From the NCBI GenBank assembly GCA_030877765.1, contig GCA_030877765.1_4853.1: DNA of 46,671 bases; one strand, 5' to 3'. The notes beneath the pieces were generated by a model. The model had not been told where the DNA came from. It worked only from the letters and a program-made list of their open reading frames with translations, and made no database searches. Below are positions 6,813 through 36,701 of the stretch, in pieces. Origin of the DNA: a phage. Both the position numbers and the translations under genes were made by a program. Positions within the stretch are counted from its first letter, which is position 1, and each line of letters starts with the position of its first letter.

Positions 6813-7069
6813 ATCCTCGCACCAAGACGTTCAATTGTTTGTTTCTTTGTTTCATCATCTATTCCGCTATAAAAATACATATAACTAAGATTCCATAGAT
6901 AATCTTCTGGTCGCTCATCGGCAAACAAATCATCCCACTCAAAAATCCATTCTCCAGTTCTCTGTCTTCTGTATATGGTTAGCCATGTATTGCTTCGTGG
7001 CGGGTATCCGAAGGCAACAGGGATTGGCTTGCCATGAAAAATCCTCTTAAAAATGCTATCAAGGAACAC
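6806..7069 (-). CDS. Hypothetical protein (87 aa)
   Basis: ORF in operon orientation, overlapping the helicase start. Confidence 0.45.
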   Translation of the reverse strand: MFLDSIFKRIFHGKPIPVAFGYPPRSNTWLTIYRRQRTGEWIFEWDDLFADERPEDYLWNLSYMYFYSGIDDETKKQTIERLGARIW

Positions 7070-7084
7070 TGCTATATCCTTTTA

Positions 7085-7125
7085 TTGATGTTTCTACGTC
7101 AGTTAGCTTATACTCAATCTACACC
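7085..7125 (+). promoter_or_regulatory. Sigma70-like promoter for the primase gene
   Basis: TTGATG, 18 bp, TATACT, then AATCTACACC at the predicted start region. Confidence 0.4.
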
Positions 7126-7144
7126 AACAATCAAGGGTAAATTT

Positions 7145-8098
7145 ATGAGATACGACTGGAAAGACATTGAGCCAAAAATGATCGGAAATTGGCAAGCTGC
7201 CATCATGTCTATCGTCAATGTGGATAGCAGAGTTTTCAATGGCAAGCACCAGCCATGCCCGTCATGCTCAGGAAAAGACAGGTATCGCTTTGATGACAAC
7301 TTCGAAACAAAAGGCGATGGCGGCGCAATCTGCAATCAGTGCGGTTCCGGCAGCGGCATGAATTGGCTGATGAAACTCTCCGGAATGAGCTTTCCTGAAG
7401 CGCTGGAGGCACTTGGTGGATTCCTGAATATGCACCCGCGTGAAAAGCTGGAGGCAATCAGGAAAGAGCTACCGAAGATAAATCACAGCGATGACTTCAT
7501 CACCGAGCAGGAAGTCGCAGCAATCATGGCTAAAACGACTCGTGTCGCGATGAATGAGTGGACTTTGATAAATGGTATTGGTTGCGACGTTAACGTCACC
7601 AGAGGCAAATCTGGAGAACTTATTGCGGTTGAGATGATGCGAGCTGACACAATGAAACTGTGCAACGTGGCATTCATTGGCATGGATGGTGATTCAATCA
7701 GAACGTTTTTCCGCGCAGGATACAACAAGGACTCAGCCATCAACGGCAAACTCACGCGCGGCGCGATAAGCCCAATCGGAGAAGACAACGGGAAGTTCAT
7801 TTACCTGGTATCTGATTATGCCGATGCGTGGAAATGCCACTACTTCACTGGCGCTCATGCCTGGTGCTGCTGGTCGCCGGAAAACATGTGGGAGGTTGTG
7901 CGCTCGGTTAGCGATGAAACGAAGGCGAGATTGCGCTGCATAGTTAATTATAAATTCGACGAACTTTGCGCTGCGGAAAATGCAGGGCTTCCGGTGATGC
8001 TTCCTGATGATGCTGAAACAATAAGGATGGCAAAGAGAATCAGGAGAAAGATTTATGACGCTGGCGAGCTGATAGAGAAAATGCCAGTAAGCAGATAA
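7145..8098 (+). CDS. DNA primase-like protein with N-terminal zinc-binding domain
   Basis: CPSCSGKDRYRFDD...GGAICNQCGSGSGMNWLMKLSGMSFPEALEAL resembles phage primase zinc ribbon; ATG 7145 has a GGGT RBS; track ORF start at 7034 is probably too long. Confidence 0.6.
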   Translation: MRYDWKDIEPKMIGNWQAAIMSIVNVDSRVFNGKHQPCPSCSGKDRYRFDDNFETKGDGGAICNQCGSGSGMNWLMKLSGMSFPEALEALGGFLNMHPREKLEAIRKELPKINHSDDFITEQEVAAIMAKTTRVAMNEWTLINGIGCDVNVTRGKSGELIAVEMMRADTMKLCNVAFIGMDGDSIRTFFRAGYNKDSAINGKLTRGAISPIGEDNGKFIYLVSDYADAWKCHYFTGAHAWCCWSPENMWEVVRSVSDETKARLRCIVNYKFDELCAAENAGLPVMLPDDAETIRMAKRIRRKIYDAGELIEKMPVSR

Positions 8099-8127: not shown

Positions 8128-8477
8128 TATGCTTTGATGTTAACTTTTATTGCGAACACTTCCACCGGGTCAGGACCGAAGTGTGGGTGGGTGATGGTCT
8201 TAACCGTCCATCCATCGTATGGGATATCAATACGCCTGGATTTATCGTCCTTCTTTGGATATCCTTTTGTGATAATTAACCTTTCGTACTTCCTTCCAAT
8301 CTGTCCGCTGTCTTTAAAGTTAATAAGGCGCTTCTTCCAGTAGTCATTAAAAAGGCGATACTCTTCCGTTTTCTCTCCGCGAATCATGGCATCGAAGTAT
8401 TCACCTTTGACAGCAAGTTGCAGGTTAGCCATTACCGCGCCTCCAGTCTCCATACCGCCTGACCATCCGGCTGGCAT
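8127..8477 (-). CDS. ASCH domain protein
   Basis: GEKTEEYR motif typical of ASCH; likely start at MANLQLAVKGEYF. Confidence 0.5.
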   Translation of the reverse strand: MPAGWSGGMETGGAVMANLQLAVKGEYFDAMIRGEKTEEYRLFNDYWKKRLINFKDSGQIGRKYERLIITKGYPKKDDKSRRIDIPYDGWTVKTITHPHFGPDPVEVFAIKVNIKA

Positions 8478-8688
8478 AGGTGTCTTTGGATACCGCTCCG
8501 TCTTTAGCCAGCTTCATAAGAATTTTTCGCAAATCTGCCGAACGCCATTCTTCATCAGGAAATTCCTTCTCCATTGCCAACCGCAAATTCCATGTTGCTA
8601 TCCTGAATGGATATTCCCCGCCGAGAGCTTTCTCTTGCAGGGCAGCCCGGGAACGCATCACCTGCAAAACCTTCTCTTTTACATCCAT
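8425..8688 (-). CDS. Hypothetical protein (87 aa)
   Basis: ORF in operon orientation. Confidence 0.4.
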   Translation of the reverse strand: MDVKEKVLQVMRSRAALQEKALGGEYPFRIATWNLRLAMEKEFPDEEWRSADLRKILMKLAKDGAVSKDTYASRMVRRYGDWRRGNG

Positions 8689-8698
8689 TTCCTTACCC

Positions 8699-8890
8699 TC
8701 ACTTAATCATCAATTTTGAAATGTCAACATAACCAACAGAAAATCTGTGCCAGTAATCATCAAGTACGTGGTAATTAGATCGAATCCATACTTTGTTAAT
8801 CCCAGACCAGAAAAACCACGTCGAATAACCATACGGTCTGAAATTCCATGAGCCTTCTGAGCGGCAAAGTTCGCCTGATATTGTTATCAT
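8699..8890 (-). CDS. Hypothetical protein (63 aa)
   Basis: Short ORF in operon orientation, ATGA overlap with the upstream gene. Confidence 0.3.
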   Translation of the reverse strand: MITISGELCRSEGSWNFRPYGYSTWFFWSGINKVWIRSNYHVLDDYWHRFSVGYVDISKLMIK

Positions 8891-10443
8891 TTCAACCTCG
8901 GATTTATGTGAACAGTGTTTCCGATAAATACGCAGTAACCATCCTCTTCAAGTGATGGCAATACACTTGATCTGAGTCGGTCATAAATTTTAGGTATCCC
9001 TTTGAATGGTCGCACGTTTTTAAGTGAATCATAAAGCCACTTCACCGTTACGCTATTTTTCCCTTTCTGAGCGGCGGAGCGTAGTTTTTCGGCAACAACA
9101 TCAAACTCAGATCGTTCACCAGCATACCCATTTGATTCAACAGCATCAGTGAACGTTTTTGTCAGTGCGTCATAAACACTGATGGCGCGACTAATTTCAT
9201 TTTCACCGATAATCTTTGAACGCTTTCCTCCATCGCACCAGTTTTCAGCAGCGTGAAATATTGCTGCCAGACGTATTATTTGCTTATCAGCTTTACCCAT
9301 CGCGCCACGAAGAAGAACGTGGTCCCACTTACCGCCGGGAAGGAAGTTTTTCTCCCACTGATTTCGTAACAGGCCGATCATTCTTGCTGAGTCATTGTGA
9401 AGCGTCAGTTTTGTTTTTTCTGCTGACACAACATTATGTATAAATCTTGCATATTCCGACCTCAAGCTGTCTGGCATTGGCTTGCTTACAGGGCAATCAT
9501 TAACCATGTCCCAGTGTTCGCGATAGCCAAGCATTGATTGCTCTCGCAACATCAGGAAACGTTCAGAAAGACCGTTCCCCCTGTCGCCAGCGGCAAGAAT
9601 GGCATCAATACTTTCATCCTGCGCAATCACACTTATGTTTCCAAGCACGTAACCAGATGAAACGCCACGACCAACACGAGCAGAGCCAATGAATCCGCCA
9701 TCCCATCCCTTCAGGATGACTTCGGCGTTTGCCTTTCCACCTTCCTTTCCGTAAGAGAGGCCAAGACATGTGTTAAGAACGCTTGCCTCGTCACTTATCA
9801 GATTAAAAAAGCCACCTTCATGGATTGCCTGATGCTGAACAGCCTCCGGCGTTGCGTCAGTAAGTGGGTATGTAATCGTATAAAGCTCTTCCAGCTTCTC
9901 CTTTTCCCGAGCAATATCGTCGCCGATTAGTGCCTTTGCATTCTGATTGCTGGCCTCTTTATATGCCTTCATCAATTCTTCAATGCGAAGATTTATTTTT
10001 ATGATCTGCTTTTCCATCTTTTTGGAAAGGTTGTCATATTCAATCTTCACCGGATTCATGTGCATTGAGTTGATAGCGGTTTTCCCTGCTGATGGAGGCT
10101 GAGAAGTAACCACGTAAAGAGAAACTGGAAGCTCTGAATGGTAATACTCAACGCTAAAGTTTCTCGTCATTGCGCTGGCGACGCAACCAAGTAAATGCAT
10201 GAACGATGTATTTATTGGGAACTGAACTGCGCGAGCTGCAGCGATTGCATAACGAGACAGCAAATCAGTCCTGTGCTCACTGGTCAGTTCTGTTTCTGAA
10301 TACGTTACATCACGCTCCTTACCTTCCTTGATGTCCAGCCACATATTTGAGCTTGGTATCATGCCATAATGGAAGGCAACGCGAGCCGGAGATACTTTCA
10401 ATTCCCTTGCTTCGTTGAAGATGTCTTGAGCTGTGATCATCAT
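8887..10443 (-). CDS. Large replication-associated protein with P-loop (possibly DUF3987-like primase/helicase-associated)
   Basis: 518 aa, first large gene of the leftward operon next to the iteron region; P-loop-like SQPPSAGKT. Family assignment is uncertain. Confidence 0.55.
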   Translation of the reverse strand: MMITAQDIFNEARELKVSPARVAFHYGMIPSSNMWLDIKEGKERDVTYSETELTSEHRTDLLSRYAIAAARAVQFPINTSFMHLLGCVASAMTRNFSVEYYHSELPVSLYVVTSQPPSAGKTAINSMHMNPVKIEYDNLSKKMEKQIIKINLRIEELMKAYKEASNQNAKALIGDDIAREKEKLEELYTITYPLTDATPEAVQHQAIHEGGFFNLISDEASVLNTCLGLSYGKEGGKANAEVILKGWDGGFIGSARVGRGVSSGYVLGNISVIAQDESIDAILAAGDRGNGLSERFLMLREQSMLGYREHWDMVNDCPVSKPMPDSLRSEYARFIHNVVSAEKTKLTLHNDSARMIGLLRNQWEKNFLPGGKWDHVLLRGAMGKADKQIIRLAAIFHAAENWCDGGKRSKIIGENEISRAISVYDALTKTFTDAVESNGYAGERSEFDVVAEKLRSAAQKGKNSVTVKWLYDSLKNVRPFKGIPKIYDRLRSSVLPSLEEDGYCVFIGNTVHINPRLK

Positions 10444-10679
10444 GAAATCCTTTTTACGTAAACCATGTCTTTATCAGGGTATCCAACCTTTGTTGAGAAT
10501 TTCATTCCTTCATTCCTGCGCATGAAGTAGTTTAATGCGTTCCTCAGGTTTGCAATTCCTCCAAACCTCTTCGAGTTAATCATCACAGTCTCACCTACTG
10601 AAACCGCCGACAACCCAGAAAGAGCTGCATTCTTTTTGCCGTACTTGTCAAGTTTCACAAAAGCCTCCAACAGCAACAA
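10440..10679 (-). CDS. Small hypothetical protein (N-terminus uncertain; likely the 47-aa product from internal ATG near 10583)
   Basis: Track ORF begins at a TTG; internal ATG (MINSKRFGG...) has a GGTGA RBS. Confidence 0.3.
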   Translation of the reverse strand: MLLLEAFVKLDKYGKKNAALSGLSAVSVGETVMINSKRFGGIANLRNALNYFMRRNEGMKFSTKVGYPDKDMVYVKRIS

Positions 10680-10730
10680 ATTATAATTGAATCATATCAT
10701 AACTATTGAATCATGCAACATCAAATACGA

Positions 10731-11040
10731 CTCACGTGGGTAGCGTGGGGAAGCCGTGGGGAACATCACCTTCCCCACGAAGTTTCACTCTAAGTATATG
10801 TAATATAATATAATTATTATTATTTGGGTTAATGGGTAATATTATTATTCATATTATAGATAGTAATTAACATAATATTAACAAATGGATTATTTGAATA
10901 TATTTATAAGGGGATGGGTATGAAATCTTCCCCTTTTTACCCACGAAAAATAAAAACATTAAAATCAATTATTTACGATGAAAAACGTGGGGCAACTGAC
11001 CTTCCCCACGGCTTCCCCACGGGTAAAAATTTACCCCACG
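10731..11040. repeat. Iteron array flanking an AT-rich core (candidate origin/operator region)
   Basis: About nine copies of (T)YCCCCACG(G) or its complement CGTGGGG in both orientations at 10732-10779, 10939-10946 and 10986-11040, either side of a ~140-bp AT-rich stretch (10795-10935). Confidence 0.7.
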
Positions 11041-11063
11041 AGCACGTTTTTAACGCATTCATG

Positions 11064-11092
11064 TTGACGTAGAATCACAACTGATGTAGATT
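11064..11092 (+). promoter_or_regulatory. Rightward early promoter
   Basis: TTGACG (11064-11069), 17-bp spacer, TAGATT (11087-11092); GAGGG RBS and ATG at 11123 downstream. Confidence 0.55.
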
Positions 11093-11122
11093 GAACTCAT
11101 AGGAACAAACGAGGGTGAAGAG

Positions 11123-11269
11123 ATGAGAATCAAAGACCGTGAAGAATTTGAAGATGCACAGACTATGGCGCGCATTGCAGTTAACCGCACAAACAACAGC
11201 ATTCCTGCAGAAGCATTCTGGAACGCAGCGATGCAGGCTTTAATCTCAGCGTATGGACTCAGCAAATGA
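11123..11269 (+). CDS. Small early protein (48 aa)
   Basis: ATG 11123 preceded by GAGGGTGAAG RBS and a promoter; below the track cutoff. Confidence 0.45.
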   Translation: MRIKDREEFEDAQTMARIAVNRTNNSIPAEAFWNAAMQALISAYGLSK

Positions 11270-11450
11270 CAGGCGCAACACTCGAACTTATCGCCAGTCT
11301 GGTTATCGTTGCTGGCATCATTATCGCAGTGGCAGTTTCCAAATCAGGGTATAAGGAGTGACAAGATGAGCAACTGGCATAACGAACACATCATGCAATG
11401 GTATCGTCGCCGCATTAAGGCAATCATTAACTCTTATGAGGTTTAACAAG

Positions 11451-11609
11451 ATGAACAACAAGCCAATTCAGCCAACAGAAGAAATGATTGAAGCAGGTAT
11501 CCGTGAGCTTATGGAAAACATTGATGTTGAGTGTATGACAGATGATGAGATGAGTGACACCGTGGTTTTCATCTGGCAAGCAATGTATCAGGCGCACACG
11601 GAGAAATAA
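11451..11609 (+). CDS. Small early protein (52 aa)
   Basis: ATG with upstream AGG; tightly packed with neighbours. Confidence 0.35.
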   Translation: MNNKPIQPTEEMIEAGIRELMENIDVECMTDDEMSDTVVFIWQAMYQAHTEK

Positions 11610-13476: not shown

Positions 13477-13917
13477 ATGGCGAATCCAAATCCAAAACAC
13501 AAGTTTTCCTCTACAAATCAACCGCCTCCGCGCGGTAAGAGTTATCGCACAGTGCTGCTTGAGGCGCTTCGTGCTGCAAATACACCGATGAATGAGATTG
13601 AATTCGTCACGTATTACATCAATAGGGCCATGACATGCGAAGACGCTCAGGCAACTGGTATGCTTCGAGAGATATTCCTGCGGCTCAACCCAATTCCTAA
13701 GCCTGTAGCTCCTCCTGTGGAGTTTGACTTCCCTGCTGACGGAACTCCGGTTCAGAAAATGGATGCAATCATCAAGGGTGTCTCCACTGGCGTCGTGCCT
13801 GCTGACATCGGCAAGATGATGGCTGACATTATCAAGTCTGGCCTTGATATTCAGGAAATCACCGAACTCGCAGCGCGACTTGAGCGACTGGAGAAATTGC
13901 TGGAACAGCAACAGTAA
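13477..13917 (+). CDS. Putative terminase small subunit
   Basis: 146-aa protein upstream of the large terminase with helical, coiled-coil C-terminus; assigned by position and size. Confidence 0.5.
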   Translation: MANPNPKHKFSSTNQPPPRGKSYRTVLLEALRAANTPMNEIEFVTYYINRAMTCEDAQATGMLREIFLRLNPIPKPVAPPVEFDFPADGTPVQKMDAIIKGVSTGVVPADIGKMMADIIKSGLDIQEITELAARLERLEKLLEQQQ

Positions 13918-21003: not shown

Positions 21004-21282
21004 ATGAAACTATCGCAACGAGGCGTGGAGACGTTTGGAATTACCGATGCCGTGAATATATCGCCTTACATCACTACCGAGACAACGCAGAATCAGTTCG
21101 ACGCGCTGGCAAGTCTTGCCACCGACATTGGCATTTACGCGTTCCGTAAATCAACGCTTCTGAAGAAGCACAACCTCCGCTGCTTCTCATGTGCTGTTGC
21201 GCATTTCATCGCGTGGGGCGAGAAGACTGGCGACAAAGCAAAACGCAAAGCTGAAAAAGAGGTTTACTGGTATGGCTATTAG
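21004..21282 (+). CDS. Lysozyme-like remnant (GH24/P22 gp19-type C-terminal subdomain only)
   Basis: QNQFDALASLATDIGIYAFRKSTLLKKHNL...AHFIAWGEK parallels the P22/T4 lysozyme C-terminal region as recalled from memory; catalytic Glu/Asp/Thr segment absent; has its own RBS (GGAGG). Confidence 0.5.
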   Translation: MKLSQRGVETFGITDAVNISPYITTETTQNQFDALASLATDIGIYAFRKSTLLKKHNLRCFSCAVAHFIAWGEKTGDKAKRKAEKEVYWYGY

Positions 21283-36624: not shown

Positions 36625-36701
36625 TGGTGGACACGGACGGATTTGAACCTTCAATCAGCCGATTATTAGTCGGTTGCTTTAACCAATTAAGCTACGCGTC
36701 C
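36625..36701 (-). tRNA. tRNA-like gene (77 nt including encoded CCA); apparent anticodon AAU
   Basis: Minus strand folds by eye: 7-bp acceptor stem with one G-U, D-arm GCTT/AAGC, anticodon stem-loop with loop CTAATAA, T-loop GGTTCAAATCC, discriminator A plus CCA. One mismatch each in anticodon and T stems. Confidence 0.55.

Follow-up and report, generated by a model that had tools for sequence, protein, structure and literature searches.

We identified a probable origin of replication in a 46,671-nucleotide stretch of phage DNA, which we refer to throughout as the window. [quoted passage not shown] A sequence-only reading of the same DNA had described here an array of short repeats, or iterons, around an AT-rich tract, and had left the choice between an origin with a DNA-unwinding element and a multi-site operator. 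The first of these two readings is supported by our analysis and favoured over the second, on the basis of the duplex stability minimum in the AT-rich core, the selective conservation of the iteron cores, the co-inheritance of the array with the neighbouring helicase gene, the presence of arrays downstream of this gene in distant relatives and the lack of overlap between iterons and promoters.

A motif scan of the whole window bore out the proposed clustering of CCCCACG above background, as seven of the eight copies lie at 10744-11040. The eight exact copies compare with 2.7 expected in the whole 46.7-kb window, and the 321-bp stretch that holds seven of them would be expected to contain 0.01 copies from the rest of the genome (Poisson P ~1e-19). 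The sole copy beyond the origin, at 21212-21218 on the minus strand, is a single occurrence within chance expectation. The previous count of about nine copies in both orientations also holds, with seven exact and two degenerate copies (nine overall) within 10735-11040. Most of the coordinates given for these copies stand, and two places were off by 1-3 nt: the array begins at 10735 rather than 10732, and the inner copy lies at 10938-10945 rather than 10939-10946. The array is composed of the following elements:

10735-10779, unstranded: left iteron arm, three CGTGGGK and one inverted CCCCACG (CGTGGGT at 10735-10741, CGTGGGG at 10744-10750 and 10755-10761, inverted CCCCACG at 10773-10779)
10927-10945, plus strand: inner right degenerate iteron pair, CTTCCCC-TTTTT-ACCCACG
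10938-10945: inner site, TACCCACG
10986-11040, unstranded: right iteron arm, mirror image of the left arm (CGTGGGG at 10986-10992, CCCCACG at 11004-11010, 11015-11021 and 11034-11040)

Three G-rich copies followed by one C-rich copy form the left arm, and one G-rich copy followed by three C-rich copies form the right arm. The two arms are inverted repeats of each other over 36 nt, with 86% complementarity, and each contains a TGGGG-N11-CCCCA palindrome. In the left arm the palindrome is made by the last two copies and spans 25 nt (CGTGGGGAA-N7-TTCCCCACG, 10755-10779); its counterpart in the right arm occupies 10986-11010, and the two centres are 231 bp apart. Neighbouring direct copies lie 11 bp apart, and the spacings between the direct copies of the left arm are 9 and 11 bp. 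The inner pair, which is degenerate in the window, consists of two full CCCCA copies in some relatives. We rejected as a gene the 52-aa ORF that runs over the right arm (10914-11072) because close relatives differ in it by 1-nt indels. A scan of 10300-11500 against Rfam returned a single match, on the palindrome; as this match is below threshold, no known RNA family fits the region.

Related viral contigs supplied 23 distinct versions of the region for an alignment; because these sequences are related, the counts that follow are not independent events. Invariant columns account for 35 out of 40 in the iteron cores (5 nt in each of the eight arm iterons) and for 9 out of 60 in the arm spacers, with a mean entropy of 0.12 and 0.91 bits, respectively. 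When 40 arm columns were drawn at random, they were as conserved as the cores with P ~5e-5 (permutation test). These figures indicate strong purifying selection on the iteron cores and drift in the spacers. The geometry of the array is also maintained. The palindrome spacing is fixed at N11, apart from six right arms with N10, and 17 sequences have 231-232 bp between the palindrome centres of the two arms whereas the other 6 have 222-222.5 bp, so that the two distance classes differ by one helical turn. Protein-binding sites that have to lie on one face of the helix would be expected to keep their spacing and helical phase in this way.

The two arms enclose an AT-rich tract, which had been estimated at about 140 bp and which measures 139 bp, with 18.7% GC. 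The elements in the tract and beside it are:

10788-10926, unstranded: AT-rich core, presumed DNA-unwinding element, with the lowest GC content and the lowest duplex stability in the window
10793-10802: AGTATATGTA site, with counterparts at 2697-2706 in L007, 3199-3208 in L050 and 44857-44866 in L038
10963-10975, plus strand: candidate IHF site, a perfect match to the IHF consensus WATCAANNNNTTR (AATCAATTATTTA), called from the consensus match only

Positions 10789-10908, with 14.2% GC, are the lowest 120-bp segment of the genome in GC content, and the next lowest has 29%. The least stable 100-bp segment of the genome also lies in the core, at -97.8 kcal/mol compared with a genome mean of -138.4 (standard deviation 7.2), which places the stability minimum 5.6 standard deviations from the mean. 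In the alignment of the 23 distinct relatives, 79 of the 139 core columns are invariant. The conserved elements comprise an invariant or near-invariant block of 21 nt, ATATTATTATTCATATTATAG (10839-10859), and two G-runs, TGGGTTAATGGGTAA at 10825-10839 and AAGGGGATGGGTATG at 10908-10922. Conservation to this degree goes far beyond the needs of a simple unwinding element. The 10-mer AGTATATGTA, itself within CTAAGTATATGTA, lies at the edge of the core proximal to the helicase gene. It occurs once per locus at the edge of the tract, also in the otherwise non-homologous cassettes of the GGGATAA type carried by phage Skate and similar phages; in the whole Skate genome it is unique. This 10-mer may be the site for a shared factor. 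The over-conservation of the core, together with a 10-mer that is shared with cassettes bearing unrelated helicase-like genes, suggests that something else also acts in the core. The candidate IHF site is placed between the inner site and the right arm, and is found in the Salmonella/E. coli subgroup only.

Promoter candidates flank the array on both sides:

11064-11092, plus strand: rightward early promoter candidate, TTGACG-17-TAGATT
10696-10724, minus strand: leftward promoter candidate for the small-ORF/helicase operon, TTGATG-17-TATGAT, called from the consensus match only

The rightward early promoter had been predicted at 11064-11092, and a sigma-70-like site is indeed present there; its -35 hexamer is kept in 23 out of 23 relatives and its -10 hexamer varies between subgroups. 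Two exact copies of TTGAATCAT, 19 bp apart (10687-10695 and 10706-10714), overlap the leftward candidate. The same pair recurs in relatives whose small upstream ORF is of the window's type (for example, L019 and L024), is absent from the cassettes with an AP2-type ORF, and may be an operator that belongs to the small ORF. The iterons overlap neither promoter; on the upstream side, the arms stop short of the two -35 hexamers by 11 bp and 24 bp. At such distances some coupling of the arms to transcription or autoregulation is possible, and with it a secondary regulatory role for the arms. The GC skew reaches its minimum at 10-11 kb; this is uninformative because the genes change orientation at the same place.

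The 1-kb stretch around the array is 99.4% identical to Salmonella phage vB_SenS_ST1UNAM and 90-93% identical to siphophages of 45-48 kb from Salmonella, E. coli and Shigella and to one record labelled Acinetobacter. Looser similarity of the region reaches Klebsiella phages and the Vibrio/Aeromonas Roufvirus group, and no copy of the origin was detected in 5,426 E. coli genomes. The only prior marking of the repeats consists of unnamed repeat regions in two GenBank records, that of phage Vi II-E1, where the 25-nt repeat is marked twice at the locus, and that of phage Akira. The accessible literature holds no functional description of the region (the original phage E1 paper, Pickard 2008, lies outside that scope), and describes no replication origin for the Skate-like, Roufvirus-like and Vi II-E1 siphophages. 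Elsewhere in the window, ARAGORN called a candidate tRNA-Ile (anticodon AAT) at 36625-36701 on the minus strand, and a tRNA-Ile is annotated among the structural genes of Skate.

As had been noted previously, the array adjoins the helicase/primase operon. The genes concerned, and the cassette to which the array belongs, are:

7034-8098, plus strand: DnaG/T7-type primase with a zinc ribbon, 90% identical in nucleotide sequence to that of Skate-type phages
8887-10443, minus strand: DUF3987 helicase of 518 aa with an MCM-like AAA+ core
10440-10658, minus strand: ORF of 72 aa that starts with GTG behind a GGAGG ribosome-binding site and whose stop overlaps the helicase start (ATGA)
8131-11063, unstranded: exchangeable helicase-plus-origin cassette, with no nucleotide similarity to the 2.9-kb counterpart of Skate

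The helicase carries a Walker A motif (PPSAGKT, residues 116-122), a Walker B motif (ISDE, residues 216-219) and a C-terminal winged helix (residues 443-518, nt 8890-9117). An MCM-like helicase fold with a C-terminal winged helix agrees with published data (PMC4889955). Sequence searches with the window helicase and with the helicase-like protein of Skate against solved structures gave no informative match, and a search of NCBIfam matched nothing. The DUF3987 family is represented in 1,147 phage records of the collection; in a search of plasmids, one plasmid only was found with a helicase homologue.

Array and helicase are inherited together. Among helicase homologues at 34-99% identity, a comparable array of iterons and AT tract is nearly always found alongside the gene, with an altered motif in some diverged lineages. 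TGGGG-type iterons in the same layout accompany the helicases of Klebsiella and Vibrio phages (85-87% identical) and that of a metagenome contig (62%). Pectobacterium phage Ymer has a helicase with 49% identity, a different genome plan and an unrelated terminase, and yet it carries TGGGG-type iterons. For each of four metagenome homologues with 34-42% identity, the closest large non-coding gap holds an AT tract surrounded by short repeats, with the motifs ACCCCA, TGGGGCG, TGGGATT and TGCCCCA/TGCCGCA. Two of these distant relatives, L045 and L046, have the array downstream of the helicase gene, between co-directional genes and away from any region of divergent promoters. A T1-like phage with a helicase homologue of 39% identity showed no such array in the 6.5 kb examined. 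From this co-inheritance, which is what links helicase and iterons, we infer that the helicase binds the iterons. Ymer also shows, just downstream of the origin-proximal promoter, a tandem 25-nt duplication, GCAACAA(C/A)AAAGTGAGGTTTTATGA x2 (L039 306-355), which spans a ribosome-binding site and a start codon.

Helicase and iterons are also replaced together in one genomic slot. In a whole-genome comparison with phage Skate, nucleotide identity is about 90% up to position 8130, at the end of the primase gene, is then lost, and resumes at 11064. Since Skate-type homology resumes exactly at the -35 hexamer, this position defines the right boundary of the exchangeable cassette. Within the slot, Skate encodes a helicase-like protein of 495 aa that is unrelated by BLAST to the window helicase; its matches fall in the half of primase-helicase families that is not the primase, and sister records annotate it as a replicative helicase. 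An AT-rich tract is also present in Skate, with (C)GGGATAA repeats on both sides, and SEzh_1 carries a variant of these Skate-type repeats (GGATAAA/GTATAAA). Phage KE12 fills the slot with a third cassette, composed of a DUF3987 helicase 34% identical to that of the window and TGCCCA/TGGGCA repeats around AT tracts. A 'putative membrane protein' is annotated in the Skate-type AT tract (L044 3701-3931; L007 2702-2941). It bears three 1-nt indels in the viable mutant seszw_300S, and is therefore probably not a gene.

Other genes of the region could in principle determine the specificity of the iterons, and we rejected three of them. The primase is common to the window and to Skate-type phages that have different iterons, and hence does not set iteron specificity. 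The small upstream ORF was rejected as iteron reader on the evidence that it comes in at least three kinds, dissimilar by BLAST, with the same iterons beside all of them and helicases that share 98-99% identity. The window has one kind, Akira, Vi II-E1 and pYD38-A have an AP2/HNH-like kind, and L012 has another. Its Skate-type counterpart was cleanly deleted in the 37-kb laboratory mutant seszw_300S, which is viable and retains both the helicase-like gene and the whole of the repeat/AT region (PMC9825161). The predicted topology of the small ORF is alpha-beta-alpha-alpha-beta-beta, compatible with a winged helix; a fold search with this prediction gave no significant structural match. The ORFs found at this position in different cassettes (72-87 aa) are dissimilar by BLAST. 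They nevertheless share the motifs VG(E/D)xxxI and, at the C terminus, F/Y-x-T-K...DG..hhhV(K/T)R(I/V), even beside unrelated helicase-like genes (window 10440-10658; L005 2697-2930; L040 633-896; L039 1689-1919; L049 2535-2756; L007 2318-2539), and are probably one fast-evolving small family.

The small terminase subunit (TerS) was the third candidate, and was rejected since neither TerS type nor iteron type predicts the other. In Seszw_1 and Segz_1, TerS is 99-100% identical to that of the window and there is no nucleotide match to the CCCCA origin, the origin of Seszw_1 being of the GGGATAA type. Conversely, the CCCCA origin is present in Vi II-E1, C1 and AB4P2, whose helicases are 98-99% identical to that of the window and whose TerS proteins are just 45-48% identical. 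Among relatives, TerS (13477-13917 in the window) falls into two classes, with 93-100% and ~45-54% identity, which are independent of the helicase/origin classes. That the TerS classes do not follow the helicase/origin classes points to mosaic exchange of both modules within one phage cluster.

These comparisons bear on who reads the iterons. An origin at this place could be recognised by a protein other than the helicase, either host DnaA or IHF or another phage protein, with the helicase recruited secondarily, and we regard this as unlikely. Host factors find some matches in the region. The iteron TTCCCCACG agrees with the DnaA box TTATNCACA at only ~6 of 9 positions, and its variant in the Klebsiella/Vibrio group, TTACCCACA, at 8 of 9; the invariant AT core contains TTATTCATA, which differs from the DnaA box at one position, and the IHF consensus is matched perfectly from 10963. 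However, TTATTCATA is the best DnaA site of the region, which contains no exact box, and phages that share their hosts have different iterons (CCCCA, GGGATAA, TGCCCA) according to their helicase, which makes a host reader unlikely. As to a phage reader, the small upstream ORF has a topology compatible with a winged helix, but it is swapped beside unchanged iterons, its Skate-type counterpart is dispensable and its prediction has no significant fold match; we found no other cassette ORF common to all carriers of CCCCA iterons. The 518-aa helicase is thus left as the protein that is most likely the initiator-helicase reading the iterons.

The function of the array might also be different from replication. 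Its place between two divergent sigma-70-like promoter candidates, 11 and 24 bp from their -35 hexamers, would suit a mainly regulatory array, that is, a multi-site operator or activator for these promoters with replication starting elsewhere, and AT-rich upstream tracts can serve as UP elements or bend sites. We nonetheless hold this to be very unlikely. The iterons stay clear of both promoters, an operator needs no 139-bp tract of 14-19% GC at the genome-wide stability minimum, and the array is tied to the helicase gene and not to any transcription factor; moreover, the homologous arrays of L045 and L046, downstream of the helicase gene between co-directional genes, argue against a pure operator. 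A pac site with repeats bound by TerS is highly improbable. SPP1-type pac sites do have repeats on both sides of the cut site. In Ymer the array lies 240 bp upstream of terS and the record starts at the array edge, at a site derived from PhageTerm 'headful' calls on sister phages, and altogether five public records were opened in or beside the AT tract (the ends of Akira MK599416, the starts of ZCKP8, ZCKp20p and KpV2811, and both start and end of Ymer OP748252). These openings could reflect assembly breaks in AT-rich DNA, the choice of annotators or real ends. Relatives, however, are reported to package by the headful mode and to have permuted genomes with no fixed ends, and physical genome ends in the AT tract find no support in the PhageTerm analyses published for them. 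In the window terS is 2.4 kb away from the array, and, besides the uncoupling of TerS and iteron types, the TerS of Ymer is unrelated to that of the window.

For the origin served by its own helicase, we propose the following course of events. The DUF3987 helicase, a member of superfamily 6, would act as its own initiator, and its C-terminal winged helix would recognise the iterons, which have the core YCCCCA and are mostly TTCCCCACG. The mirror-image arms, on the same face of the helix and 22 turns apart, would position helicase assemblies on either side of the 139-bp AT core. The core, as the easiest-melting DNA of the genome, would then open, and the helicases would be loaded in opposite orientations. 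In terms of the array, replication would start there, the helicase would be the reader of the iterons and two hexamers would be loaded. The adjacent DnaG-type primase would prime, and extension would be carried out by the host polymerase, as we suppose; a paper on a relative reports that no polymerase gene was found there (PMC11769527).

An origin of this design is unsurprising to the specialist. DUF3987 helicases occur in over a thousand sequenced phages, T1-like phages included, and the domain, which is of unknown function in Pfam, gains a concrete and testable role. The natural swaps in one slot (CCCCA, GGGATAA and TGCCCA, each with its own helicase or helicase-like gene) are ready specificity controls. 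The phages concerned are widespread virulent siphophages of Salmonella, E. coli, Klebsiella and Aeromonas, and genome reduction or engineering of such phages (for example, seszw, PMC9825161) must know which non-coding DNA to retain. A broader proposal, which we put forward tentatively and consider rather doubtful, is that DUF3987 helicases as a class are self-loading initiator-helicases, two copies of which are placed at phased mirror-image arms. The origin would then be bipartite: the helicase would read the iterons, and a factor shared between cassettes, perhaps the common primase or a protein of the host, would read a cassette-independent element (CTAAGTATATGTA and the 21-mer).

Several known origins resemble the array in part. 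In lambda, with its ori and O protein, and in iteron plasmids, the iterons are 17-22 bp long, have one orientation, lie on one side of the AT region and frequently fall within the gene for the initiator, a protein other than a helicase that depends on a separate loader and on host DnaB. Common to those systems and to the present array are initiator sites beside an AT-rich region and the exchange of initiator and origin as a module among related phages. The repeats described here differ in having a core of 7-9 bp and in occurring in both orientations and on both sides, and no separate initiator gene is common to their carriers. Unlike a DnaA-dependent origin of the oriC type, the region has no cluster of TTATNCACA boxes. 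In SV40 and papillomaviruses, large T antigen and E1 are initiator-helicases that act as two hexamers on dyad repeats of pentanucleotide scale near an AT tract and divergent early and late promoters; they belong to superfamily 3, use another origin-binding domain and serve eukaryotic viruses, without sequence or family relationship to the system described here. Archaeal origins have ORB elements on either side of an unwinding element, which are bound by Orc1/Cdc6 and lead to the loading of MCM. They share with the array the inverted elements that flank an AT-rich unwinding element, the MCM-type helicase and recognition by a winged helix. In archaea, however, the ORBs are longer and their reader, Orc1/Cdc6, is separate from MCM, whereas we propose one protein for both functions.

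The closest known systems are SaPI Rep/ori and the related MCM-like Cch helicase of SCCmec. SaPI Rep proteins are self-loading helicases of superfamily 3 or 6, whose C-terminal winged helix reads iterons of 5-6 nt, and the SaPI ori has 6-12 iterons in two sets that flank a central AT-rich region, at least two per flank, and are oppositely oriented (PMC9371898). The window likewise encodes, beside the origin, a helicase that fits the hexameric AAA+ type of superfamily 3 or 6, and this helicase has a C-terminal winged-helix domain. The nine iteron copies of the window, with a core of 7 nt, are distributed as four on the left, four on the right and one inner copy, in mirror image around the AT tract. 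A profile of 42 helicase homologues compared with solved structures retrieved no Rep chain; Rep1 and PriRep5 belong to superfamily 3, and Rep2, of superfamily 6, was outside this comparison. There are also differences. The SaPI ori is immediately downstream of rep, whereas the origin of the window is upstream of the operon, behind the 72-aa ORF, and is downstream in L045 and L046. The arms of the window pair a palindrome of fixed spacing with direct copies at an 11-bp phase, and the AT core itself is highly conserved, which sets them apart from SaPI. Moreover, the host element is a virulent enterobacterial siphophage rather than a satellite, and its helicase belongs to the DUF3987 family. By analogy with SaPI, the helicase would bind its own iterons specifically and melt the AT region; what the comparisons show is the co-inheritance of helicase type and iteron type. 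The array therefore appears to be a SaPI-like initiator-helicase origin, a design that is itself already known, in a phage group to which the accessible literature has assigned no origin.
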